Assembly (NCBI GenBank): GCA_964486045.1
Contig: CAZALK010000004.1
Coordinates: 96,001 to 160,000, forward strand
Direction of reading: 5' to 3'
Origin: an uncultured archaeon
GTDB taxonomy: Archaea; Asgardarchaeota; Lokiarchaeia; Sigyniarchaeales; SOKP01
DNA: 64,000 nucleotides
The notes below the pieces were generated by a model, which was not told the origin of the DNA, ran no database searches, and saw only the letters and a list, made by a program, of their open reading frames with translations. Within the stretch, counting starts at the first letter, position 1. Each line of letters begins with the position of its first letter. This document shows, in pieces, positions 12,144 to 26,816 of this stretch. The translations under genes and the position numbers were made by a program.

Positions 12144-14588
12144 TTGGTATATCAAAGAAGACTAACCTGGGTTTCAACAAGCGATTACGAAAGGTTATCC
12201 TCTATAATATTTGAGACGAAAATTAATCCATTTGGTATAGCAGCTTATAATCCTAATGAACCTGTAACAGATTTTGTAGGGAGAAGGGAGGAACTTTTAC
12301 AATTTAAAGAACAAATACAAATTGTAATTAATAATAAAATCAGTAGATCTGTGAAATTAAATGGACCTGCAGGTGTAGGAAAATCCACATTATTTAATTT
12401 TCTTAAGGAATCGATAGAAAAAGAGAGAATATCTATTAGATCAGATTCTGAGTATATTTTAAAAGATTGTGATGTGCTTTCTACGTTCTTTCAAATCCCT
12501 GATAAGATCTCTGATTTTTTAGACATTTGGAAACCATTACTAGAGGGTTTAAGGCCAGGATTTGAAAAAGAAATAGGTTATGATATAAGTTTACCAGAAT
12601 ACATCACTTTTCAAATTATCTATCGAATGTTTCTAAAAGATAGAGAAAAATTAGCTGAAATTATATGGAAAGATACAGAGCGCCCTCAGAGATTATACCA
12701 GGTAGAACTTAAAGATATTATAGATCCCTTGTTTTCTCAAGGAACTCCAGCAGTTCTAGCACTTCAAGAACATTATTCCTTGAAAAAAAGAGAGCTCCGA
12801 GATGTTTTTAAAGTAAGAATAAAAGGCAGGATTTACGAAATCAAACGAAGTGATAATAAAAATATTCTTAATCTTTTCAGAGTTATTGATGAAGATGACC
12901 CTGATGATTATTTGGAATTATTACTAGATGCTAATTCAGATTTATTTAAGACCAATGATGATCTGATTAATTATTTTAATGATTTAATGCGTTATTATGC
13001 CTGTAGCACAAAAAAACAACCAATTTTATTGATTGGAATTGATGAAGCTGTAAAGGCAGATCCACAAATTTTCAATCAATATTATCAAAATTTAGGAAAT
13101 TTGTTTGTTAAATTAAGAAATACATTAAATGATATTCTATTTGTTTTCATATCTACTACGGAGGATTGGGCAGAATTTGATAATATAATAAAGAAAAATA
13201 CTGATCTTCAGAGCCAATTAGGAGAATTTATGCATGAAATGCCCCTAACTCAATTGAGTGTAGATGAATTGGCTCAAGTTTTCAAAAACCGTATGAATAG
13301 GTTTTGGGAAAATTATCCTTCCCAACGTCCTCTTGAAGCGCCTTATTATCCTTTCTCTGAGAATTTATTTGAATATGTATATCGTTATAGATTGAGAGAT
13401 TTACGCGCTACGATACACTTTCTTAAAGATATGTGGATTAAGTTTAAATATTTAAGAAAAATTCCAAAATTTGAGACAATTTTCGAATCGTTGAGAGAAG
13501 TTCGGAAATTTGATGCAAGGGGGTTCAATCCTAATACGTTTAAAAGATTTGAGTGGAATATTATAAAAAATTCATTCAATGATCCTACAAGATTTAGAAG
13601 TAATTCTGCAAGATCTTCAGAAGTTGAAAAAGGGCTGGAATATGCTTGGAAGTGTCTCTTATATGAAAATCCACCAACAGTTACGAGAGTTGATAATAAT
13701 TGCACTATTATAACATCAAGTGGTAGTCGTAGACCTGATATTTATTTAGAAATTCTGGGTAATTTAGGGGCTGAATTTCGACGTAATATTGAATTTCAAG
13801 TAAAAGCTTACAATCAAGGAGGGACTGTTGCCTTGCACCATATTAAGTCTTCTCTCGAATTATTTACGGAACAATTTACAGATTTTATTTATTTTATAAT
13901 CACAGGGAAGGGATTAAAACCAGATGCAGAAGCAGCAATTAAAGGCTTAGAAATAACTTATACTAATCGAATACGACGTCCGATTTTAACTGAAGACCAA
14001 CGAAATCGTCTGTATTTATTAGCATTATATAAAGAAATTACAGGTAAAAATTTAGATGGAACCCTCCCAAAGGACTTTCAAATTGCTAAGGATCTTCTTT
14101 CATTTATTATTGGACAACCTATTGAAGATTTTTTGTCTGGGGTTAAAAGATTAGCTTATAGACAAACAATAACCGAAGTTGAGATTATATCCCCTCCGGT
14201 TGTTAAACCTTCCGAACCATCTCAAACTGAATTGCCATCTTTTGACGATGATTCAGAAATAATAGTACTCCCTGGAGAGCAATTCGGTACTCAAGTAAAA
14301 TGGTTAGACGATCATCCCAGTTTAAAACCTTATCGATTTGAAGCATCGGCACTTTGTGGTTACTTAAAAACTAGGGAAGAGGGTAGATACAAATTCAAAT
14401 TTACCATCCCTACAGTGGAAAAAAATGTTATTATGCCTAATGCCTCTCTAGGTAAACAGTTATTTAGAACACTAGTTAAAGTTTTGAAAGAAAAAGGATA
14501 TATTGTTCCAGAAAAATCATCATTTAAACTTACTCAGTTAGGAGAGCAACTTTATCAAACAATAAAAGCAGATAATTATTCTTGTTAA
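12144..14588 (+). CDS. AAA+/STAND-like P-loop ATPase fused to an Mrr-like PD-(D/E/Q)XK nuclease and a C-terminal wHTH
   Basis: NPF..FVGRxEEL, Walker A GPAGVGKS, Walker B ILLIGIDE and YYPF; RPDI...EFQVKAY..V...I...D...IITG.G...DA; C-terminal LKEKGYI...FKLTQLG; AGGAGG SD before TTG. Confidence 0.75.
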   Translation: MVYQRRLTWVSTSDYERLSSIIFETKINPFGIAAYNPNEPVTDFVGRREELLQFKEQIQIVINNKISRSVKLNGPAGVGKSTLFNFLKESIEKERISIRSDSEYILKDCDVLSTFFQIPDKISDFLDIWKPLLEGLRPGFEKEIGYDISLPEYITFQIIYRMFLKDREKLAEIIWKDTERPQRLYQVELKDIIDPLFSQGTPAVLALQEHYSLKKRELRDVFKVRIKGRIYEIKRSDNKNILNLFRVIDEDDPDDYLELLLDANSDLFKTNDDLINYFNDLMRYYACSTKKQPILLIGIDEAVKADPQIFNQYYQNLGNLFVKLRNTLNDILFVFISTTEDWAEFDNIIKKNTDLQSQLGEFMHEMPLTQLSVDELAQVFKNRMNRFWENYPSQRPLEAPYYPFSENLFEYVYRYRLRDLRATIHFLKDMWIKFKYLRKIPKFETIFESLREVRKFDARGFNPNTFKRFEWNIIKNSFNDPTRFRSNSARSSEVEKGLEYAWKCLLYENPPTVTRVDNNCTIITSSGSRRPDIYLEILGNLGAEFRRNIEFQVKAYNQGGTVALHHIKSSLELFTEQFTDFIYFIITGKGLKPDAEAAIKGLEITYTNRIRRPILTEDQRNRLYLLALYKEITGKNLDGTLPKDFQIAKDLLSFIIGQPIEDFLSGVKRLAYRQTITEVEIISPPVVKPSEPSQTELPSFDDDSEIIVLPGEQFGTQVKWLDDHPSLKPYRFEASALCGYLKTREEGRYKFKFTIPTVEKNVIMPNASLGKQLFRTLVKVLKEKGYIVPEKSSFKLTQLGEQLYQTIKADNYSC

Positions 14589-14612
14589 AGATTATGGCTT
14601 GCGTAAAATATT

Positions 14613-14756
14613 TTACTTTTTTCTTGATTTTCCTTGAGATTTAGGATTATTTTGGTTCATTTGATTTGATCTATTATCATTTGCTGCTTTAGAAGCCGGA
14701 TTATTTGGATTTTTTGAATTTGATCTATTATCGTTTGAACTTTTATTTTTACCCAT
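14613..14756 (-). CDS. Unannotated 47-aa Asn-rich microprotein with two NDNRSNxxNxNNP repeats
   Basis: Hand translation MGKNKSSNDNRSNSKNPNNPASKAANDNRSNQMNQNNPKSQGKSRKK*; GGTGA SD upstream of ATG. Confidence 0.75.
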   Translation of the reverse strand: MGKNKSSNDNRSNSKNPNNPASKAANDNRSNQMNQNNPKSQGKSRKK

Positions 14757-14887
14757 CAACTTCACCTTTATGTTTATTTAAAAATATGATTTGTGGTAAA
14801 TTAAAATTTACATTTCTGCTCAAATTTTATAAAGCAAATAAAGGAATATATATCTATAAAACCAAATCTAAACTTTTACTTATAGTC

Positions 14888-16660
14888 ATGGCAAATTTCC
14901 TAAGTACACCCCCTTTATCAGCTACTGACGGAGAACGAGCGTTTTATAATCGAATTAAGTATCTTTATCTTGGCGAAGATCACTTAATAGGATATTTTGA
15001 GCCGGATATTGGAGGGATTCATCCTGATTTTTTACTTCTTTCTCCCATTATCGGAATAATAATAGTAGAGATAAAGGATTATTCAGAGAAATATTTGAAA
15101 ACGATGGCTAAATCGGGAAAATGGGAGAGATTAAAAGATGATAATCTTATCTTTCTTGATAATCCATTTGATCAGATATATCAATACTGGCGAGTGATAA
15201 AAGACAGGATTGATTATTGTCATTTTCCAAAAAACATAGAAATCCCAATAATTCGATTAGTAGTTTTTAGCAAAATTCCTCATGATGGTCATATTGCTGA
15301 AGAAATTAGGAAAATTGTCCCTGCGAAAATCCATCTGTGTTTTAAGAACATGTTGAATAGAAATGAGAAATTTAAAGAATATTTTAATGATATTTTACCC
15401 TCAAATTTAGAGCTCCTTGCTGAATATTTTAATCTGCTTCGAGCAAATATTATCCCAACATGTAGATTACCCACACAAAAACAAACAGATCTGCTTGAAT
15501 ACTTTACACATGAGGAGAAGGTTAAATTACTCGATCAAGACCAAGAAAAATTTGCACGAGAATTAGGAGAGGGTCATCGACTAATCTTTGGCGTTGCCGG
15601 TAGTGGAAAAACAATCTTGTTACTTGCCAGAGCTAGAATCCTTGCTAAACGTCATCCAGATTGGAAGATTTTAATTCTATGTTACAACAAACTACTTAAA
15701 AAGCTACTTTTCAACTTATTAAATCCTCAAGATTATGAGGCGGATATCACAATTAGCACTTTTCATGGATGGGCCCGGAATTACATTTTAAACATTGAAA
15801 ACGAATTCTCTATGATATACAAAAAAGCTGAAGAAAAAGCAAAGAAAGAAGAAAAAATGTATGAATTTTTCCAAGATTTTGTACCAAATTTATTATCAAA
15901 GACGATTGAAGTATTAGGAGATACTAAGATTGAATATAACGCAATTTTAATAGACGAAGCTCAAGATTTTGATGAATCTTGGTTTTTACCTCTAATGCAA
16001 ACATTAAATCTTGAGACTAACTCATTATTAATTACATGTGATGGACTTCAGGGAATATATGCCAGAAAAAGGTTTTATTGGTCTGATGTAGGGATACAAG
16101 CAAGGGGAAGAGTTAAAAAATTTAGAAATTCATATCGAACACCACTTGAAATTGGATATTTGGCCCAAGAAACTTTACCTGAAAATCTTAAAGAATTAAT
16201 AGACAAATTTGATGAATTTCTTTCAACTGACAAGTTTCTGGGTGCCCATGGGACTGTGGAAATTGCCGTATCGGAAAATAGAGATGATGAATACAAGAAT
16301 ATTGTAAGTAAAATAGGTAGACTTCTTAAAAATCCTCAAGAAATATTAGTACTTTTTAAGTACAATATGGCGAAAATTGACTATGATCATTTATTTTGTA
16401 GATACCTCGAGGATTCTAAGATTGTGTGGAAAGACCTGCAAGACCATAATTATAATTCTCCCGGATTATTAATAGGGACTCTCCACGGAACTAAAGGTTT
16501 AGAATCTGATACCATTATAATTCCTGAAATTGACACATACAGATCTGATAAGGATCGTCAATTACTTTATGTAGGTATAACTCGTTCTCGGAAAAAAATA
16601 ATCTTAACTGCTAGCAAATCTACAGAATTGATAAAGTCTTTAGAACAATATCAAACCTAA
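14888..16660 (+). CDS. NERD nuclease domain + UvrD/Rep-like SF1 helicase
   Basis: PDFLLL..GIIIVEIKD (NERD); GVAGSGKT, ILIDEAQD, NSYRT, TLHGTKGLE and LLYVGITRS helicase motifs; real start probably ATG 14888. Confidence 0.88.
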   Translation: MANFLSTPPLSATDGERAFYNRIKYLYLGEDHLIGYFEPDIGGIHPDFLLLSPIIGIIIVEIKDYSEKYLKTMAKSGKWERLKDDNLIFLDNPFDQIYQYWRVIKDRIDYCHFPKNIEIPIIRLVVFSKIPHDGHIAEEIRKIVPAKIHLCFKNMLNRNEKFKEYFNDILPSNLELLAEYFNLLRANIIPTCRLPTQKQTDLLEYFTHEEKVKLLDQDQEKFARELGEGHRLIFGVAGSGKTILLLARARILAKRHPDWKILILCYNKLLKKLLFNLLNPQDYEADITISTFHGWARNYILNIENEFSMIYKKAEEKAKKEEKMYEFFQDFVPNLLSKTIEVLGDTKIEYNAILIDEAQDFDESWFLPLMQTLNLETNSLLITCDGLQGIYARKRFYWSDVGIQARGRVKKFRNSYRTPLEIGYLAQETLPENLKELIDKFDEFLSTDKFLGAHGTVEIAVSENRDDEYKNIVSKIGRLLKNPQEILVLFKYNMAKIDYDHLFCRYLEDSKIVWKDLQDHNYNSPGLLIGTLHGTKGLESDTIIIPEIDTYRSDKDRQLLYVGITRSRKKIILTASKSTELIKSLEQYQT

Positions 16661-18284: not shown

Positions 18285-18686
18285 TTAATCGATTTTCCTA
18301 ATACTAATTAAAAATTCGACGAATAAACATCCGAAAACGAGGTCAACAATAACGGTTGCTACCGGAAGAAAGTTGGAGGCACCTATTATAAAATAGATTA
18401 GAAACAGTATAAAAAGATAGAATTTTCCTATTACACCTAACAATATAATACCGTGATTCTTTTCAATATTCCTCGATACTAGATAATAACCTATTCCGAA
18501 TAAAGAAGTTAAACCAAAAAAACCTTGAAAAAAAACCAGACTAGTTGGTGATTCCATACCAAACAAGGGAAATACTGAATCCGCGAGAGGAGATAAAGCT
18601 ATGAATAAAAATCCAACGACAAGGTTCCATATTGCCCCAATTAAGAATAAATATTTGTAATAATTTTTCCTTTCCAAACTATTCAT
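18285..18686 (-). CDS. Small 4-TM membrane protein
   Basis: Four hydrophobic segments; 37 nt downstream of the MoxR operon's last gene. Confidence 0.75.
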   Translation of the reverse strand: MNSLERKNYYKYLFLIGAIWNLVVGFLFIALSPLADSVFPLFGMESPTSLVFFQGFFGLTSLFGIGYYLVSRNIEKNHGIILLGVIGKFYLFILFLIYFIIGASNFLPVATVIVDLVFGCLFVEFLISIRKID

Positions 18687-18723: not shown

Positions 18724-19548
18724 TCATGCTGCAAAAAAGTCTTCTGGAAATAATGTCACAGGTCTCCATTCCAAAATATCTAACATTAGACTAGGTTTGA
18801 TGCTGTTTATCTTAAGAGGACGACCATTCTGAGTTGATATCACGAAAGGCCCAATAGCATTATTTTCAAAGTTGCTTTGGTAATTTTGCAAGTAGTGAAA
18901 GATTCCTTGAGCATTTATTGTTGATTTTATTGATTGATTATGATACAAAACACCAATTTGGGCTCTCGTTTCTCCAACACTGCAATTTTTCTCTTTAAAA
19001 TCAAGATTAACTTTAATTAATTTTCGTAATCTGCTTTCCTTGATAAGTAGTTTAGCACAGTATGGACAATTATTTTCTTTTAAATCATCTTTTTGAATTT
19101 TCCAACGGAAACCATAGCGTAATAACATAATATCGCATTCCTTACAAGCGAATATCTTCTTTCTAGTTCGGGAAATAGTGGGTTTTGCTCCTGGTCTATC
19201 AAGAATAACTTTTAAATAGTAGTGAATATCCGTCCCTTTTTTGTACTTGGCAATCTCTTCTAGCATTAGTATCCCAACCTCAGAGAACCTTTTTAATTTA
19301 TTGGTTTGTATTATATTCATTAAATCAATTAACCCAATCTCATTTAGTTTAAATTCTCTTCCTAACTTCTTTCCCTCCGAATCATTTACAGATACATAAT
19401 AATCTGCTGAATAATCACCATCATAATATTTGGTCTTGTAATCATTTATTGTTAAATAACAATTTGAAATTTGATCACCAACCTTTACCTTTAAACTATT
19501 TTTCAAATAGCTCTCTATTGGTGTAGCATCATCATTTTTAATTACCAT
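18724..19548 (-). CDS. Hypothetical Zn-ribbon protein ending in EWRPVTLFPEDFFAA
   Basis: CKEC...CPYC ribbon; C-terminal motif shared with the 26325-26816 product. Confidence 0.75.
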   Translation of the reverse strand: MVIKNDDATPIESYLKNSLKVKVGDQISNCYLTINDYKTKYYDGDYSADYYVSVNDSEGKKLGREFKLNEIGLIDLMNIIQTNKLKRFSEVGILMLEEIAKYKKGTDIHYYLKVILDRPGAKPTISRTRKKIFACKECDIMLLRYGFRWKIQKDDLKENNCPYCAKLLIKESRLRKLIKVNLDFKEKNCSVGETRAQIGVLYHNQSIKSTINAQGIFHYLQNYQSNFENNAIGPFVISTQNGRPLKINSIKPSLMLDILEWRPVTLFPEDFFAA

Positions 19549-19599
19549 TATATTTCATTTTTTCAATTTTTTATTTTTTAACAAAAAATCACTGAAAAT

Positions 19600-21012
19600 T
19601 CATTTCATAAGCTTAGCAATTAGCTCTGGAAGATTTTTTGGGGTACAAGCGAGAACATCTATACCCATTTGTTTCATTTCCCTTGCATAGCGACGATCAT
19701 ACATTGGCTGGCTATTATAACCGAGAGCCGCAATTCCTAAAATCTTTGTCTGACCTTCTAATACATGTTTTAATGCCTTGGTTAGATTATCATAACCTCC
19801 TCCTTCATAAAAATCGCTAATAATAACCATTATTGCTTTCTTAGGGTTTTTAATTAAAGATTGACCATATCGTACTGCTCTTGTAATATCAGTTCCACCT
19901 CCTAATTGAACAGACATTAACACATCAACGGGATCATCGATTTTACTTGAGAGATCAACAACTTGGGTGTCAAATATTAGGAGATTAGTATGAACAGATG
20001 GTAAAGTAGCAAAAATTGAAGCCATTACTATTGAATAGATAACTGAATCAGTCATAGATCCGCTCTCATCTATCATAACTACTATCTGCCAAGGTTTTTT
20101 CCTTCTTTCAGCGCTAAAAAAACGCGGTTCTGCCATTATTAATTTTTTTAAATTAGGATTATAGTGTTTCAGATTTCTCCGGATACTTTGTTTCCAGTCA
20201 ATATTTCTAAACACTTTAATAGGAGTATGTTTATCTCTTTTAATTGCTCCTACGATATGTCGTTCTACTTCTTGTTTAAATTTATTTTTTAAAGCATTTA
20301 CTACTTTTTTCACAATTTTTCGTGCAATATTTTTAACATTCTCTGGAAGCATGTGTTTCATACTGATAATAACTTTTACCATCTCAAGACTCGGTTCCAC
20401 CTTATCGAATAACTCCGGATTTTTAATGATATCTTTTAAATCAGATCGTTCCACAAAATCTTTTTCAAGTACTTCTTTAGTTTGTTTTGGAAAGAATTTT
20501 TTGACATTTTCTATCCATTTTGGGATTGAAAGTCTGCTTCCCTCTAAACCAGCACTTCTTTTTTGATTAGGAGGATGGTAAACGAAATTTAGCGTATTAT
20601 CGATTTTAGTTAAAGTACTCGCTTGTGGTGTATGTGGAGTTTGTTGACTATTTCTTTGAGAATCTGTTTTAGATTCAGATTCTTCTCTTCCTCCTCCTGG
20701 CTTTTTTTTTTGACCTGATTTGGCTTGACTAGAACCAATTTTACCCGATCTGCCTCCAGGTCGAGATTTTGCTTGTCTTTTATGAGCATTGTTTTTCTTC
20801 ACTCCCTTTCCAGGTTTAGATTGTCCTGCCTTTGAAATATTTTGGTTAGCTTGAGTATTCAGATTATTTTGACCAGCCATCCCCGGATTAGGAGAACTAA
20901 AATTTATGCCCTGCTCTTCAGATTTTTTACCTAAAATTAATCTCCATCTATTTAAAGCTGACCTTTTCTCTTCAGAGAGATTTTTTGCATCAAATATTTG
21001 ATCTGACGTCAA
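19600..21012 (-). CDS. VWA (CoxE-like) protein, YehP-like
   Basis: RWRLILG N-terminal motif, MIDAS DESGSM, QLGGGTDI and ISDFYEGG; TTG start at 21012 after GAGGT. Confidence 0.9.
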   Translation of the reverse strand: MTSDQIFDAKNLSEEKRSALNRWRLILGKKSEEQGINFSSPNPGMAGQNNLNTQANQNISKAGQSKPGKGVKKNNAHKRQAKSRPGGRSGKIGSSQAKSGQKKKPGGGREESESKTDSQRNSQQTPHTPQASTLTKIDNTLNFVYHPPNQKRSAGLEGSRLSIPKWIENVKKFFPKQTKEVLEKDFVERSDLKDIIKNPELFDKVEPSLEMVKVIISMKHMLPENVKNIARKIVKKVVNALKNKFKQEVERHIVGAIKRDKHTPIKVFRNIDWKQSIRRNLKHYNPNLKKLIMAEPRFFSAERRKKPWQIVVMIDESGSMTDSVIYSIVMASIFATLPSVHTNLLIFDTQVVDLSSKIDDPVDVLMSVQLGGGTDITRAVRYGQSLIKNPKKAIMVIISDFYEGGGYDNLTKALKHVLEGQTKILGIAALGYNSQPMYDRRYAREMKQMGIDVLACTPKNLPELIAKLMK

Positions 21013-21013
21013 T

Positions 21014-23491
21014 TTATACCTCACCAAACCAAGTTTCAAAAACATCCCTTACCTTTTTATCAATAGATTTAAAGAATATTAGGATTTCGTCATCTACATC
21101 ATCAAAAACTTCATTAATTTTGGATTCCTTTAAGCCATAATGCTCTGCGAGTTTTTCTATGAATATTTCATATTCCCTTTGTTGGAGTTCTGAAAAGGCT
21201 TTTCTTAAAGCAGGTACAATTGCAGTAAAGATATCCCACTCAAGATTTTCAACTACTTCTGCGAAGAGTTCAATTATTTCCTTATTAAATAAAATTTTAG
21301 CTTGACATACATAAATAATTCCCCGAATCAAATCTCCCACTTTTACTTGGATTGATTGAACACTATTCACATCATCAAGAACATTTCGTTTTATTTCATT
21401 AATGCTAAGTTTATTCATAAGATAAAGTATGCCTAAATTACCGCCTTTTATAAACTCATTTCGAGTGGAATCTATGCATGTTTTGATACTTTCTGTAAAA
21501 ACATATAGATCAAGGTCAAGTTCTGTTATTGAGTTAAAAGAATCCGCTAATTTCTTTATTGTTACAATGTATTTTTCCGCATCTTGCTGTGGTGGATTAG
21601 CAAAATTCGGAATAGCATAACAACACGTATAATAACAACGATTGATTAATTTGGTTATGAGTTCTATGATTTCTTTTCTCGCATCCATCATTAAAAGATA
21701 TTGATGGATCATAATCAAATTAAAAAATCCACCAGAAAGGCTTAAAAGTTGGTTATCTACACTTATAGAATTGTCACATTCGGTATATAGTTTTTCAAAC
21801 TGATCTGAAAACCCCATTAATAAACTTTGGAATAGTAGATTAGTTACTTTATTAAAATTTTTAATACTTTTTTTAGTCTCCTCAATTAGCATACTATTAC
21901 TTGCTTCTTCCACTGAAGCGCCAAAAGCGCTAAGTTCAACGAGTTTTGTATCAATTCTTGGAGTCCAATGTAATGCCCAGACTTCTGTAAATACTCCTGT
22001 TATCCCTTGCAAAACATCTGGACCAGAAACCCGCGCCAAATAATCTATTCCTAAAAATTTTATTCTCCAAAACAGTTGTGATGTTTCTATATCTTTTTCT
22101 TCGCGTAAACTCAAATGTATTTCTTGTGACCTTTCTTCAAGATCAATTCCACGCGATTCTAATTGAAGATAAAAATCCTCTTGGAGTGGTAATCTTCCTA
22201 TTTTTTTAGTTACTTTTCCTACCTTATATCCAATTGTTTTACTATATATATAATCTTCTAAATACTTTCCATCTATTTTTGGATTCCCTTTTATGAGTGA
22301 CATATAAATTGCATCAACAATATCTTTTAATCCTGGTTCTGAACGTCGTCTCAACATCGCGAGCATTTTTGCCCCATTATATGCATTTATAGAATCAGAA
22401 ATAGAAATAAGGTGGCCTCCTTGACGAGCACTTCTAAAAATGTCTGTAATAATCTCTAATGCAGTAGCTTCATAAGTTTTATGAACTTTGGAATTGAATT
22501 TTTCCCAAATATTATTATAAAATTGGGGTGCTTGGTTTCCAGAAAGATAACCTGACTTTTGGCTAATTCTGAAATAAGAGAATGGAATTAATGAATTAGT
22601 CATACCCTTAACAGGAAATGTGTAATTTTTCGCTGAAGTATCTGGAAGTGCGATTGAATGGATACCTCCAGTTATCACCAACACATCTCTTCTTTTAACT
22701 TTGTATTTATTTATATATTTTTCAATCTGATATTTCATGTAGGCTTCTCTCGCGAGTGTACCATCTATTTTGAGTAAGCTTTTGTCTAGTGTTTGACGTA
22801 TGCACGAGCAAAATAATAAGATACTTTCTCTTAACTGATTAATATTAGAATGAGGGGCATTAATTTCAAATAGAGTTTCCCATGTTTCATTAAAACTGTC
22901 AAATTCAAATACTTGTGCAAATTTTTGATAAAATTTGCTAATTGTATATACCATTTCTTTTTGAACAATAAAGGAATTTAAATCTTTTTTTTCATGAATT
23001 TCAGAAAAAAACGATAGTAATCCTGTCATAGGTAAATCAATAAAATGTGTTGGTATTTTCTTTTTTACACATTCAGTTAATGCAACCATTTCGGGGGAGT
23101 AAGAAACAAACGGATATAAAACTTCAAAACGAGCAGGTAGAGAAACATCTGGACTAAGAATTCCATTTAGACTAAATTTATTGTTAATATCTGAAAACAT
23201 CGAAAGGATGGCAATAGGCGGAATTGTATCTTTAGCAACCATAAATTGTATTAGTTTATCTGCAACCGTTGGACCTTCTATTAACACCAATTTAGGTTTA
23301 TGAACTTCTATCCATTTTTTTACTAGAAAACTAGAACCTGGTGAATGATGGCGAATTGGCAGATATTTAATTTCAGCTTTTTTTACTTTTTGAACCTGAT
23401 CGTCAATTAAATCAGTGTCTAATTGGAGTAAGTCTCCAATTTCATATAAAATGTTCTTTAAATTTGTTGCATTTAAGGTATTATTGCTCAT
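21014..23491 (-). CDS. DUF5682 / YehM-like protein
   Basis: PIRHHSPG, LVLIEGP, YSPE, AREAYM, VITGGIH and SGYxSG motifs. Confidence 0.85.
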   Translation of the reverse strand: MSNNTLNATNLKNILYEIGDLLQLDTDLIDDQVQKVKKAEIKYLPIRHHSPGSSFLVKKWIEVHKPKLVLIEGPTVADKLIQFMVAKDTIPPIAILSMFSDINNKFSLNGILSPDVSLPARFEVLYPFVSYSPEMVALTECVKKKIPTHFIDLPMTGLLSFFSEIHEKKDLNSFIVQKEMVYTISKFYQKFAQVFEFDSFNETWETLFEINAPHSNINQLRESILLFCSCIRQTLDKSLLKIDGTLAREAYMKYQIEKYINKYKVKRRDVLVITGGIHSIALPDTSAKNYTFPVKGMTNSLIPFSYFRISQKSGYLSGNQAPQFYNNIWEKFNSKVHKTYEATALEIITDIFRSARQGGHLISISDSINAYNGAKMLAMLRRRSEPGLKDIVDAIYMSLIKGNPKIDGKYLEDYIYSKTIGYKVGKVTKKIGRLPLQEDFYLQLESRGIDLEERSQEIHLSLREEKDIETSQLFWRIKFLGIDYLARVSGPDVLQGITGVFTEVWALHWTPRIDTKLVELSAFGASVEEASNSMLIEETKKSIKNFNKVTNLLFQSLLMGFSDQFEKLYTECDNSISVDNQLLSLSGGFFNLIMIHQYLLMMDARKEIIELITKLINRCYYTCCYAIPNFANPPQQDAEKYIVTIKKLADSFNSITELDLDLYVFTESIKTCIDSTRNEFIKGGNLGILYLMNKLSINEIKRNVLDDVNSVQSIQVKVGDLIRGIIYVCQAKILFNKEIIELFAEVVENLEWDIFTAIVPALRKAFSELQQREYEIFIEKLAEHYGLKESKINEVFDDVDDEILIFFKSIDKKVRDVFETWFGEV

Positions 23492-23515
23492 CTTATCGAA
23501 ATTGTCTGTATAATA

Positions 23516-24793
23516 TTATAAAAGTTTACGAAATGCACTATCGAACTCCCTCCATATAGGGGATTGGGAAGTTCGATTTCTTACTGCCATATTAAAATAC
23601 TCTCTTAACTTTGGGAGATTTTCTTTATCATCTTTAACAACAGCATCAATGATGTTCATAGCGATATGTTTTGGTTCCACTTTTGCTTTTCCGAAATATT
23701 TAGCATTGATAGCACTATCTACTAATAGTGAAATTTCTTCAGAAGTTGACATAACGGTGGAAATAGGAGTAAATCTGCCTCCTCTTGTACTTCTCCCTGT
23801 TCTCAATTCTTGGAAAACTGTAATTAATAAATCCAAGGTTTCATCTGGAATTTGGATTTTGAATCCTATTTTTGATAGTAAATCATCTGTACGTTGTATA
23901 ACAATTTTCTTTTCCAGATTTTTATCTTGAATTACTGGAATATAAATAAAATTAAATCGACGTTTTAGAGCAGCACTCATTTCGTTTACACCTCTATCTC
24001 TATCATTAGCAGAGGCTATTATATTAAAACCCGGGATTCCAAAGATTAAGTATTTAGAGCCCAGTTCTGGTACTGGTATAACCTTTTCAGAGAGGATAGA
24101 TATCATACTATCTTGAATTTCTTGTGGGCATCTAGTTAATTCTTCAAATCGGAGAATTTTCCCTTCTCTCATAGAATTGATTGTAGGGGAGGGGACAAGT
24201 GATTTCGGACTAGGCCCTTCTGAAACTAGTAACGCATAGTTCCACGAATACCTAATCTGATCTTCAGTAGTCCCCGCCGTCCCCTGTATTAAATATGTAC
24301 TTGTTCCACAAATTGCTGCTGAAAGATGCTCTGAAAGCCATGATTTAGCGGTACCTGGCTCCCCGATAAGCATTAAAGCTCTTTCGCTTGCTAAAGTGAC
24401 GATTGATTTTTGGATTATATTTCGATCCCCAAAAAATTTGGTGGATATCTTAATCTTTTTTTGTCCACCATTTTGTTTTAAGGGAAATTCTTCATCGGAA
24501 CCTGAAATAAACAATTCAACCATCTTCGGTGATAACTGCCAATTCGGAGGTTTAGGGTAAGTATCATTTTGTATCAATGCTAATAATTCTTCTTTATGTA
24601 AATCCTCTGCGGGAACCCGAATTTTTTGATCTTTAGTTTTAACCGCTTTTTTATCTTTCCCTAAAATAATGTCCTTAGTTTTTTTAATAATTTTCGCAGG
24701 AGTGTTTGGTTTTTTAGGAATGGTTTGTTTCTGAGGAGTTTTTTTTAATGGAGCTTTTTTTATAGGTGTTTTTTTCTTAGCCATAATTTTCAC
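23516..24793 (-). CDS. MoxR-family AAA+ ATPase, YehL subfamily
   Basis: PPNWQLSP, GEPGTAKSWLSEHL, QGTAGTTEDQIRYSWNYA, FEELTR and RDRGVNEMSAALKRRFNF; Lys/Pro-rich N-terminal extension. Confidence 0.93.
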   Translation of the reverse strand: MKIMAKKKTPIKKAPLKKTPQKQTIPKKPNTPAKIIKKTKDIILGKDKKAVKTKDQKIRVPAEDLHKEELLALIQNDTYPKPPNWQLSPKMVELFISGSDEEFPLKQNGGQKKIKISTKFFGDRNIIQKSIVTLASERALMLIGEPGTAKSWLSEHLSAAICGTSTYLIQGTAGTTEDQIRYSWNYALLVSEGPSPKSLVPSPTINSMREGKILRFEELTRCPQEIQDSMISILSEKVIPVPELGSKYLIFGIPGFNIIASANDRDRGVNEMSAALKRRFNFIYIPVIQDKNLEKKIVIQRTDDLLSKIGFKIQIPDETLDLLITVFQELRTGRSTRGGRFTPISTVMSTSEEISLLVDSAINAKYFGKAKVEPKHIAMNIIDAVVKDDKENLPKLREYFNMAVRNRTSQSPIWREFDSAFRKLL

Positions 24794-24799
24794 ATTATT

Positions 24800-25960
24800 T
24801 TATTTTGGTTTTACTTTATAAACTTGTTTTAAATATTCTCTATTATCAAGAGTATGAACTTGTGAAATAGATGGGAAATTTATATGATTATTATCTATAA
24901 TACTAAGAGGGAATAATCCAAGTTGCCCTCTCTCTAAAATTAATTTACAGAATAAACCATCTATTTTTGTAGATTTTTTGTAAAAGTCATCAAACTTAGT
25001 GATTAAATTTTTATTAATATCTTTTTCCGGAATTCGGACAAATAAAGGATATTTCTTTTCATGATCTAGCGGATATATATTCACAGGAGTCTTCTTTTTA
25101 TCTTCTCCTTCTTTATAACTTCCAATAACATGTGCCTGCTTTATATATATATAATCAAGGAAGCTTGCAGGCAGATCAAATGGAGTAATGTCATGGTCTT
25201 TCCTAAGCATTTTATATATCTCTCCTGAATCAAAATAAAACTTTTCCAGTTTTGATATAGAAAATACATCTTCAACTGACTCAGCTGTTTCTTCAACAAA
25301 TACCTTTGAATCGGGATTTTTTTCCAAGAATATATTTCCTTCCTTAATTGCAGTAGGAATATTTTCAGTTTCAAAATAAGTAGAAAGAATTTTTTCTATG
25401 GCACATGGTGGCTCGGAATTGGGTAAAGCAGTTTGGAATAAAACATCTGGATTAAAACCCTTTTTGTAAGGATACATCAAATTCCATTTAAGTATAGCTC
25501 CCCTAGTTTTTCCGAATAAAGACATGAAATAAAAAATTAACCCAATCATCGTTCCTTCTAAAACGATTTTCTCAATTCCCGTTACTCGTAATAAAAATCT
25601 ACTCATTATTTCTGTTTCTGATAATTTCCCCATCAACTTATCGAAAAATTCGACTTTCTTATTATTTTTTTGGGCTTCGATGAATGATATAAAAGCCCTA
25701 CTCTGCAACCAACAATTACTCAAGAAAAAGACATACCTTTCAATGTTAAATGCTGGACTATTATCTAAAAACCTTTTTAATTCTACGTGTAAATACCGAA
25801 GTGATGTTGCTAATCTGAATGATTCTAATTGTGATATGTTTTGTAAAAAGAATTCAATCTCTCTAATTCTTTCCTGGGTGACTAAATTTAACCCCTTATA
25901 TGTTAAATTTTCACAGTATTTTTTTATTTGTTCACAAACTTTCTCTAATTGGATTTTCAT
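24800..25960 (-). CDS. MoxR-operon-associated hypothetical protein (N-terminal helical bundle)
   Basis: 386-aa ORF tightly linked (6-8 nt gaps); LxxKGLxxVTQE...RLATSLR N-terminal motif. Confidence 0.75.
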   Translation of the reverse strand: MKIQLEKVCEQIKKYCENLTYKGLNLVTQERIREIEFFLQNISQLESFRLATSLRYLHVELKRFLDNSPAFNIERYVFFLSNCWLQSRAFISFIEAQKNNKKVEFFDKLMGKLSETEIMSRFLLRVTGIEKIVLEGTMIGLIFYFMSLFGKTRGAILKWNLMYPYKKGFNPDVLFQTALPNSEPPCAIEKILSTYFETENIPTAIKEGNIFLEKNPDSKVFVEETAESVEDVFSISKLEKFYFDSGEIYKMLRKDHDITPFDLPASFLDYIYIKQAHVIGSYKEGEDKKKTPVNIYPLDHEKKYPLFVRIPEKDINKNLITKFDDFYKKSTKIDGLFCKLILERGQLGLFPLSIIDNNHINFPSISQVHTLDNREYLKQVYKVKPK

Positions 25961-25968
25961 TGTGCTCT

Positions 25969-26328
25969 TTATTCTTTTTGTAAATCCTTTTTTACAATCT
26001 CAAGGGTCATTATCCTCTCAAACATTCTTATAATCGTAATTATATGCAATATATATATCGCCAAATCTTGTTTAAGGTCGTTCGTAACATTACCTTGTAA
26101 TAGTTGATCTATTTTTGCTATAAACGAAGTTAGTTTCTTGTTTAGGATATTCATGTGCATATTTTCTAAGTTATTCTTTAAATTGATTATTTTATTATAA
26201 TCTTCTTGACTTACGCTTTCTATTCCTTTAATTAATATTTCATTTAGATGAGGTTTAATTGAATCGAAAACGGAGAAAATTGCTTCTGCATTATTGTGTT
26301 CCATATAAATTGATCCTCTCTTAATCAA
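25969..26328 (-). CDS. MoxR-operon-associated small helical protein
   Basis: Overlaps or abuts its neighbours; LxxILIKGIESVSQE motif resembles the N-terminus of 24800-25960. Confidence 0.7.
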   Translation of the reverse strand: MIKRGSIYMEHNNAEAIFSVFDSIKPHLNEILIKGIESVSQEDYNKIINLKNNLENMHMNILNKKLTSFIAKIDQLLQGNVTNDLKQDLAIYILHIITIIRMFERIMTLEIVKKDLQKE

Positions 26329-26816
26329 AAAGCCATAAAATCTTCAGGTAAAATTTCAACAGGGCGCCATTCTATTTTTCCTTCAATTGCATTTTGATAT
26401 TTTAAAAATATTGCTGTTGCTTCTGGTTTTATGAATTTTGGTTTAAAATTAATCGTATTATTTACCCAACTGATTATTTCATTTACGGTTGCTTGTTTTG
26501 ATTTAACTGTAGCAATTAGCGCAAGTATAATATGTTTACAAATTTTACCTCTTAAACCACCACATGAATAGAGATTTTGGGTGCCACAGAAAAAAGTCCC
26601 ATCACTATTTAACGATACCGCATATTCTAATTTATCTGGATGCGTTTGAGATTTAATTACTGCTCTTAAGGCATTATCTGTTTTATCAACATAGAGGAGA
26701 TTTGACTCCTTTTTAAACATTCTAATTGCCTTATTAATTCGAGGTGGGATCTTTTCATCTCTTATTGACGACTTTAATTTATCCACAAATTTTAGTATAT
26801 CTTCGGATACACTCAT
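26325..26816 (-). CDS. SWIM-type zinc-finger protein (YehQ-like role), ending in EWRPVEILPEDFMAF
   Basis: VIKSQT..Y...L.SDG.FFCGTQNLYSCGGLRGKICKH (C..C..CxH); first gene of the operon. Confidence 0.8.
   Translation of the reverse strand: MSVSEDILKFVDKLKSSIRDEKIPPRINKAIRMFKKESNLLYVDKTDNALRAVIKSQTHPDKLEYAVSLNSDGTFFCGTQNLYSCGGLRGKICKHIILALIATVKSKQATVNEIISWVNNTINFKPKFIKPEATAIFLKYQNAIEGKIEWRPVEILPEDFMAF

Follow-up and report, generated by a model that had tools for sequence, protein, structure and literature searches.

We analysed a 64,000-nt stretch (the window; contig CAZALK010000004.1 of assembly GCA_964486045.1) from the genome of a Lokiarchaeia (Promethearchaeota) archaeon, which includes a cassette of the YehL/ddrTUVWX type (SWIM-MoxR-DUF5682-VWA) on the minus strand. 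The first and last genes of this cassette encode proteins with closely similar C-terminal tails. The features, in the order of the genes, are as follows:

26325..26816 (-): SWIM-like zinc-finger protein, 163 aa (C-x7-C-x7-C-x-H), carrying the tail
26325..26372 (-): C-terminal tail, copy 1 (15 codons plus stop)
25969..26328 (-): small helical protein, about 113-119 aa
24800..25960 (-): 386-aa protein without a Pfam hit, probably YehQ-like without its SWIM domain
23516..24793 (-): MoxR (YehL-type) AAA+ ATPase, 425 aa
21014..23491 (-): DUF5682 (YehM-like) protein, 825 aa, with an N-terminal TraB/TIKI-like putative hydrolase or peptidase domain
19600..21045 (-): VWA_CoxE protein, 481 aa, with an intact MIDAS
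18724..19548 (-): predicted OB fold with an inserted zinc ribbon (RPA70C/Teb1-like), 274 aa, carrying the tail
18724..18771 (-): C-terminal tail, copy 2 (15 codons plus stop)

A co-oriented gene for a 133-aa membrane-protein-like product follows 37 bp downstream, so the description of the OB-zinc ribbon gene as the last gene is approximate. A scan for sigma-70 promoters was at chance level.

To determine how closely the cassette resembles YehL-subfamily MoxR operons (E. coli yehL-yehM-yehP-yehQ and Deinococcus ddrTUVWX; PMC5552922), we examined each protein in turn. The ATPase matches Pfam AAA_5 (E 4e-35), the gene that follows it matches DUF5682 (E 2e-88) and the VWA protein matches VWA_CoxE (E 4e-47), with MIDAS residues D326, S328, S330, T385 and D411 invariant among its homologues. 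The evidence for a SWIM zinc finger is weaker: the Pfam SWIM match is below cut-off (E 0.13), the best fold match is to ZSWIM8 (Z 5.1, residues 9-122), similarity to SWIM-type clusters of the atlas is TM 0.57, and a Foldseek search with the model found nothing at E<=0.001. We therefore describe this protein as SWIM-like with variant Cys spacing, without deciding its membership of the family; its relatives form 481 clusters at 50% identity, mostly bacterial fusions. Alignment (hhalign) of residues 30-330 of the DUF5682 protein to TraB homologues gave a probability of 97.4 (E 1e-11), as compared to 0.3 for a reversed control, and R47, H48, E72, R248, E249 and H278 are invariant, whereas a sequence search of PDB with DUF5682 found nothing. 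The small helical protein is conserved in operons of the tail-carrying type, has weak similarity to the N-terminus of the 386-aa protein, and is fused to it in one planctomycete genome. The neighbours of the 386-aa protein in the atlas include a cluster in which 21% carry SWIM (score 0.88), which we treat only as a lead. The Deinococcus operon is radiation-induced and has no known mechanism; orthology to its genes was not tested by sequence, and no expression data were examined for the archaeal cassette. The system described here differs from these operons in that SWIM is a separate 163-aa protein with a C-terminal tail, and in the presence of the helical/386-aa pair and of extra tailed OB, HIRAN and BRCT/pentapeptide proteins.

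The original prediction was that the first and last genes share a 15-aa C-terminal motif, and this observation is confirmed: the two tails (W-R-P-x4-P-E-D-x4-stop) are identical at 10/15 positions in the same register. The similarity is more than chance. The tail occurs in only these 2 of 20,471 six-frame ORFs of the genome, and a tail HMM scores them at E 6e-15 and 9e-13, with the next hit at E 1.7. Five of the ten shared residues use different synonymous codons (32/48 nt identical), which rules out a recent DNA duplication or gene conversion. Loss of the motif from orthologues of the last gene had been named in advance as grounds for abandoning the idea; instead, the W, R, P, P, E and D positions are invariant in 9 homologues of the last gene and in 37 of the SWIM gene. 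Specifically, E260, W261, R262, P263, L266, F267, P268, E269 and D270 are invariant in the former, and W150, R151, P152, E154, P157, E158 and D159 in the latter. We conclude that the tail is under selection.

Two further claims did not hold. First, a GxFxxxTQN motif was proposed as a second shared element. It is present in both proteins, with TQN-to-tail distances of 67 and 18 aa, but TQN is kept in only 2 of 9 homologues of the last gene and the family profiles do not align there, so the match is incidental. Second, the last gene was suggested to encode a SWIM protein that has lost its ligands, possibly a decoy. An AF2 model instead predicts an OB fold, with four invariant Cys of its own (C135, C138, C161 and C164); structure comparison (VIA) gave Z 6.7 to Teb1 OB-C and the RPA core (rmsd 3.5-4.1), and the top seven rows are all ssDNA-binding OB proteins. 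The protein looks like an alternative ssDNA-binding front end rather than a degenerate-SWIM decoy. A buried structural element of a shared fold, the other outcome named beforehand as evidence against a docking peptide, was also not found: the two proteins share no fold, only the last 17 columns of the families align, and the tail of the OB protein has no structural home in the model (pLDDT <50 over residues 255-274). In the SWIM protein, however, the tail folds back as an ordered strand (152-155, pLDDT about 85).

In 400 Asgard genomes, the tail ends 33 ORFs in 17 genomes, whereas a reversed-pattern control gave 0. The carriers are 15 SWIM, 10 HIRAN with or without OB, 6 OB-zinc ribbon, 1 Cdc6-like and 1 unknown protein, five unrelated scaffolds in total. 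The second tagged gene is often next to the operon but belongs to a different family in different genomes. Among 161 Lokiarchaeia, 12 genomes have both the tag and the 386-aa gene, 5 have only the tag, 1 has only the gene (its contig ends at the SWIM position) and 143 have neither; note that related genomes are not independent. In 251 Planctomycetota, the SWIM-type tag and the 386-aa gene are in the same 2 genomes. In bacteria the tag ends SWIM domains fused to BRCT or pentapeptide repeats; in one bacterial order, 17/107 genomes carry up to 11 tagged genes, and each of 5 genomes tested has exactly one 386-aa gene, making this gene a single-copy marker of the tag-using subtype. Distant DUF5682 operons without the 386-aa gene (genomes G278 and G043, and Embleya) lack the tag. 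Four tag-positive genomes lack a detectable core, namely G219 (99% complete), G030 (96%), G197 (68%) and G243 (a deletion remnant), and a fifth tagged protein lies in G765, where no 386-aa gene was found. A genome-wide scan for non-SWIM-type tails gave 23 loci, of which 16 were archaeal ORF ends; the seven bacterial hits were out of frame, internal or in frames of 60 codons or fewer, and were treated as chance, as were hits in genome G556 and viral contig L082.

The tag is also found in viruses. Six IMG/VR contigs hold 8 in-frame copies, with P values of 0.009 to <5e-6 on positions not fixed by the search pattern, and no SWIM domain was found in the viral contigs. Five of the viral copies are internal, so a free C-terminus is not needed for whatever they do, and up to three copies lie inside one phage protein. 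The 91-aa viral carrier has no homologue besides itself. Hosts of the six IMG/VR viruses were not determined, nor was a host assigned to archaeal virus G404; however, the one full-length non-SWIM carrier among 47 bacterial carriers lies in a prophage of a genome that has the machine. A search of cultured phages found no SWIM homologue and no tail, although the short query is insensitive. None of the seven operon proteins matches a PADLOC defence model (library of 2023).

These data are consistent with a model in which the tail is a short linear docking tag that acts in trans, and we favour this model with moderate confidence. In this view, each genome has one core machine (the small helical protein, the 386-aa protein, the MoxR ATPase, the DUF5682 TraB/TIKI-like hydrolase and the VWA adaptor) and one to eleven tagged front-end proteins, whose bodies mostly bind unusual DNA structures (ssDNA-binding OB folds, 3′-end-binding HIRAN, BRCT, pentapeptide DNA mimics and a Cdc6-like fragment). 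The tag would have begun as the C-terminal end of a SWIM domain family; bacteria would swap front ends in front of the whole SWIM-plus-tag module, whereas Lokiarchaeia would graft the tag alone onto new proteins. When a front end binds damaged or replicating foreign DNA, the tag would recruit or switch on the ATP-driven machine there, and viruses would carry the tag on small proteins and inside large virion-associated proteins to occupy the receptor. The portability of the tag, its conservation, its linkage to the core, the many-to-one gene ratio and the viral copies are direct results of the analysis, whereas binding, the trigger, the output and the decoy role are inferred, there being no binding or functional data. 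The original interpretation, a conserved interaction peptide on alternative partners of one AAA+/VWA machine, is thus partly supported: the reading as a docking tag is well supported, the proposed receptors (VWA MIDAS or MoxR pore) are not shown, and the decoy idea fits the viral copies better than the last gene.

Within this model, the helical/386-aa pair is the leading but still tentative candidate for the receptor, with DUF5682 or the MoxR pore only slightly less likely and the VWA MIDAS the least likely. MoxR/VWA pairs engage acidic client residues (PMC9976466), and, as in CbbQ/CbbO and NorQ/NorD client recognition (PMC4660213, PMC9976466), an intact MIDAS could bind an acidic residue of the tag: E and D are invariant in 149 cellular tails and 30 aligned tails, although the search pattern also required them, and metal-dependent binding was not assayed. 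Those machines, however, have one dedicated client with a surface acidic patch rather than a portable tag on many unrelated proteins. Co-folding of the tail (31 aa) with the 386-aa protein, the helical protein and VWA residues 143-481, as had been suggested for identifying the receptor, gave no answer (score 0.00) and is not evidence either way; Mg was omitted, and MoxR, DUF5682 and the SWIM core were not included.

Other explanations are also possible. Since the tail is ordered against its own domain in the SWIM model, the SWIM domain itself could be the receptor: the tail would complete the SWIM sheet in cis, tails on other proteins would bind the same groove in trans, displacing the SWIM tail, building hetero-oligomers or capping SWIM polymers, and viral copies would poison this exchange. 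Consistent with this, 44/47 bacterial carriers keep the tail attached to SWIM, and G219 and G030 keep SWIM-tag and HIRAN-tag genes without a detectable core. However, E154 is mostly replaced in non-SWIM carriers, the fold match to ZSWIM8 ends at residue 122, without the tail, and genomes G033 and G049 each keep two tagged non-SWIM genes but only a broken SWIM gene was found (both assemblies are incomplete, and in G033 the relevant region is not assembled). We consider this explanation unlikely, but the strongest of the alternatives. Alternatively, the tag might dock on a general host factor outside the operon, as a PIP box binds a clamp or the SSB tail binds repair enzymes, its link to the operon reflecting only the location of the SWIM gene. 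The carriers are DNA-transaction proteins, some tagged genes are unlinked or lie in genomes without the core, and viral copies can be internal. Nonetheless, the tag is absent from 144/161 Lokiarchaeia and tracks the patchy core in archaea and bacteria; a universal receptor would not give this pattern, and the same motif works in both domains of life, making this explanation very unlikely. Lastly, the tail might have no function in trans, being a structural end of the SWIM domain repeatedly captured by recombination as a passenger 3′ end. Tagged genes often lie beside the SWIM operon, where rearrangements are common (the G243 deletion and relocated SWIM genes), but the invariant residues with synonymous divergence in non-SWIM families, the family-specific tail variants and the multiple copies inside one phage protein argue against this, and conservation already largely refutes it; we regard it as a remote possibility.

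We compared the cassette with two further kinds of system. Like MoxR-vWA ternary conflict systems (Kaur et al. 2020, PMC7159879), it has MoxR plus a MIDAS-bearing vWA, a patchy distribution and variable partner domains including pentapeptide repeats; peptide binding and proteolysis are predicted for those systems. However, no VMAP, iSTAND, FtsH or beta-propeller component was found by Pfam in the operon (bpMoxR matched the ATPase only below cut-off), and variation lies in separate tagged proteins rather than in effectors fused to vWA, since 15 VWA homologues differ only in a low-complexity linker. That paper does not mention SWIM, HIRAN, BRCT or YehL. The tag resembles the PIP box, the SSB C-terminal tip and the ssrA degron as a short, terminal, aromatic/acidic motif on unrelated DNA-transaction proteins, and such motifs are imitated by viruses, but the sequence of the tag is different and its putative receptor, which has not been identified, is a patchy accessory machine, not a universal factor. 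Literature searches on DUF5682, TIGR02996, MoxR in Asgard archaea and the yeh genes, whose coverage was incomplete, found no description of the tag.

A more far-reaching reading is possible, though tentative: an undescribed antiviral or DNA-surveillance system shared by Asgard archaea and bacteria, in which interchangeable DNA-structure sensors signal through one peptide tag to a MoxR/VWA-driven TIKI-like peptidase, and viruses of both domains have repeatedly evolved tag mimics, including multi-copy mimics in virion-associated proteins, to block it. YehL-type MoxR operons are widespread and have no known mechanism, client or output. The tag gives a 15-residue handle on this machine, and the motif lists candidate partners genome by genome. 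The viral copies are independent evidence that the machine matters in virus-host conflict, and provide ready-made candidate inhibitors. The tag is also a clear case of a linear motif spreading by grafting in Asgard archaea, a eukaryote-like way of wiring modular signalling.

To confirm that two genes of the cluster share a C-terminal motif, we first examined the minus-strand cluster, which reads in order:

26325-26816 (minus strand), SWIM-like protein of 163 aa, ending in the motif
25969-26328 (minus strand), helical protein of 119 aa
24800-25960 (minus strand), 386-aa protein
minus strand, MoxR AAA_5 protein
21014-23491 (minus strand), DUF5682 protein
minus strand, VWA_CoxE protein
18724-19548 (minus strand), 274-aa protein, ending in the motif
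18285-18686 (co-oriented, 37 bp after the 274-aa protein gene), 133-aa membrane-protein-like gene, without a Pfam hit and not seen in related loci

Homologues of the cluster are from Promethearchaeota/Lokiarchaeia. The SWIM-like and 274-aa proteins end in the same 15-residue motif, W-R-P-x4-P-E-D-x4-stop, with 10 of 15 residues identical, as the original prediction had stated; the observation of a shared tail therefore holds. The motif is the only significant BLAST match between the two proteins, and it occurs in no other ORF of the 5.18-Mb genome. The core residues are invariant in 9 homologues of the 274-aa protein and in 37 homologues of the SWIM-like protein, and half of the shared residues use different codons. 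By contrast, the GxFxxxTQN likeness that had been proposed as a second shared feature is not conserved.

To determine whether the two carriers are related outside the tail, we compared their family profiles and predicted structures. Profile-profile comparison aligned only the last 17 columns. The model of the SWIM-like protein (pLDDT 89) best matched ZSWIM8 (Z 5.1, residues 9–122), and its tail is an ordered strand plus a short helix. The model of the 274-aa protein (pLDDT 76) is an OB fold with an inserted zinc ribbon; its top matches are Teb1 OB-C, RPA70C, CST and Cdc13, with Z scores of 5.1–6.7 that are middling but consistent, and its tail is unstructured. We conclude that the two carriers are unrelated.

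We next asked how widely the motif, hereafter the tag, is distributed. A codon-pattern scan of 400 Asgard genomes yielded 33 matches in 17 genomes, all in this class (Lokiarchaeia), whereas a reversed control pattern yielded none. All 33 matches are ORF ends: 15 SWIM proteins (two fused behind probable OB domains), 10 HIRAN proteins with up to three OB folds, 6 OB-zinc ribbon proteins, one Cdc6-like AAA+ fragment and one unknown 338-aa protein. In the Cdc6/Orc1-like fragment (locus L047:1501-2391 of genome G033; Pfam Cdc6_lid, E 2e-8), the tag stands where the winged helix normally is. Thirteen of the 17 genomes have two or more tagged genes. The second tagged gene next to the operon varies: it is OB-zinc ribbon here, in genomes G053, G210 and G215 and at locus L128, HIRAN in genomes G039, G267 and G274 and at locus L126, and a pentapeptide-OB-zinc fusion at locus L129. 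Two outcomes had been named in advance as evidence against an interaction peptide, namely that the tail is a buried element of a shared fold, or that the motif is not conserved in orthologues of the 274-aa protein; neither was observed. Elsewhere, a 29-codon frame near a contig end (L181:226-315, genome G727) ends in the tag, and may be a stand-alone tag peptide or a fragment.

To test whether the tag tracks the operon, we scored its co-occurrence with the 386-aa gene. Among 161 Lokiarchaeia genomes, both occur in 12, the tag alone in 5, the gene alone in 1 and neither in 143; the Fisher P value of 2e-13 is overstated, since kin are not independent. The gene-only case is a contig that ends at the SWIM position. 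The tag-only cases include a deletion remnant, a decayed operon and a 68% complete genome, but also G219 and G030, which are nearly complete. In the remnant (L116:4959-5519, genome G243), a deletion has fused the SWIM N-terminus in frame to the VWA C-terminus, removing the operon core, and the HIRAN-tag gene remains beside it. In G219, which is 99% complete and has no detectable core, the SWIM-tag protein (L046:1033-1545) has a substitution at the otherwise invariant A133, possibly reflecting early decay after operon loss. In addition, a 146-aa Lokiarchaeia protein (L063:6773-7213, genome G765) has a tag-like end in a genome where no 386-aa gene was found.

The SWIM-plus-tag domain is widespread, with 481 clusters, in most of which it is the C-terminal domain of BRCT/pentapeptide proteins. 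The same operon is in Symmachiella dynata, and among 251 Planctomycetota the tag and the 386-aa gene are in the same two genomes. In one bacterial order, 17 of 107 genomes have 1–11 tagged genes, and 44 of 47 examined carriers are SWIM fusions; each of five genomes tested has exactly one 386-aa gene. Related MoxR-DUF5682-VWA operons without that gene lack the tag; one of these, on a megaplasmid or secondary replicon of Embleya (L131:7738-16206), includes a SWIM protein that lacks the tag. The helical protein weakly resembles the N-terminus of the 386-aa protein, and the two are fused in genome G421 (L115:2811-4295). The N-terminal 300 residues of DUF5682 align with TraB/TIKI-family proteins (probability 97.4), with conserved His/Glu/Arg residues, so this domain is a probable metallo-hydrolase or peptidase, and the machine may carry a peptidase. 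The VWA MIDAS is intact.

Pattern scans of IMG/VR identified six viral contigs with eight in-frame copies of the tag. Three copies are exact C-termini of small orphan ORFs of 91, 132 and 148 aa in clusters of small phage genes (contigs L083, L081 and L080, respectively). L081 (genome G404; 43 kb with direct terminal repeats) is a complete virus with terminase, primase and its own PCNA (Pfam E 5e-12), and is therefore probably archaeal; its host was not assigned. The other five copies are internal in large proteins: three in a 1687-aa protein beside a terminase gene (L085:2868-7931), one in a 912-aa protein (L086), and one in a polyvalent-type provirus protein in which a portal is fused to NUDIX and ADP-ribosyltransferase domains (L084:2125-7773). 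The 1687-aa protein has four repeats of TIGR02996, a planctomycete host domain, and may mimic more than one host module. Raw hit counts are near chance: one hit was out of frame, and a reversed control gave three copies of one sequence. Hence, we scored only the positions that the search pattern left free against a profile of 149 cellular tails, which gave P values of 0.009 to <5e-6 for all eight copies. The L081 copy is the weakest in kind, with a mismatch after the D that was not scored. No SWIM domain was found in viral contigs. The only full-length non-SWIM carrier among the bacterial hits is a 147-aa ORF in a prophage (primase, tail fibre J, tape measure) of genome G738, which also encodes a SWIM-tag gene and the 386-aa gene. 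This ties a viral tag to a host that has the machine.

The many-to-one gene ratio, the DNA-binding nature of the carriers and the lack of a structural role outside SWIM point to a docking tag that would connect interchangeable DNA-structure sensors to one MoxR/VWA/DUF5682 machine. The distribution, conservation and viral occurrence of the tag are observed, whereas the docking role is inferred, and we regard it as somewhat more likely than not. The original interpretation, a conserved interaction peptide that might for example engage the VWA MIDAS site or the MoxR ring, is partly supported: the interaction peptide is well supported, but the receptor is unknown. MIDAS binding of an acidic residue has precedent (PMC9976466), but VWA, MoxR and DUF5682 also occur in tag-less operons, whereas the helical/386-aa pair is specific to tag-using ones. 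The main rival, which we consider unlikely, is that the tag binds the SWIM domain in trans. A related operon is radiation-induced in Deinococcus (PMC5552922). Given that ssDNA, 3′ ends and nicks arise in both damage and viral replication, repair and defence roles are not exclusive; the patchy distribution and the viral copies favour at least some conflict role. An 814-aa AAA+ protein and a NERD-UvrD helicase matching a PADLOC model (C3a187, E 3e-69) lie about 2 kb from the end of the operon (12144-16660), a possible small defence island, although this is weak evidence.

The operon belongs to a known but uncharacterised kind (yehLMPQ/ddrTUVWX), and is not one of the described MoxR-vWA ternary systems (PMC7159879). 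We found no paper on the tag; what is new here is its viral and prophage copies. The tag makes a long-unexplained machine directly testable, and suggests viral mimicry.
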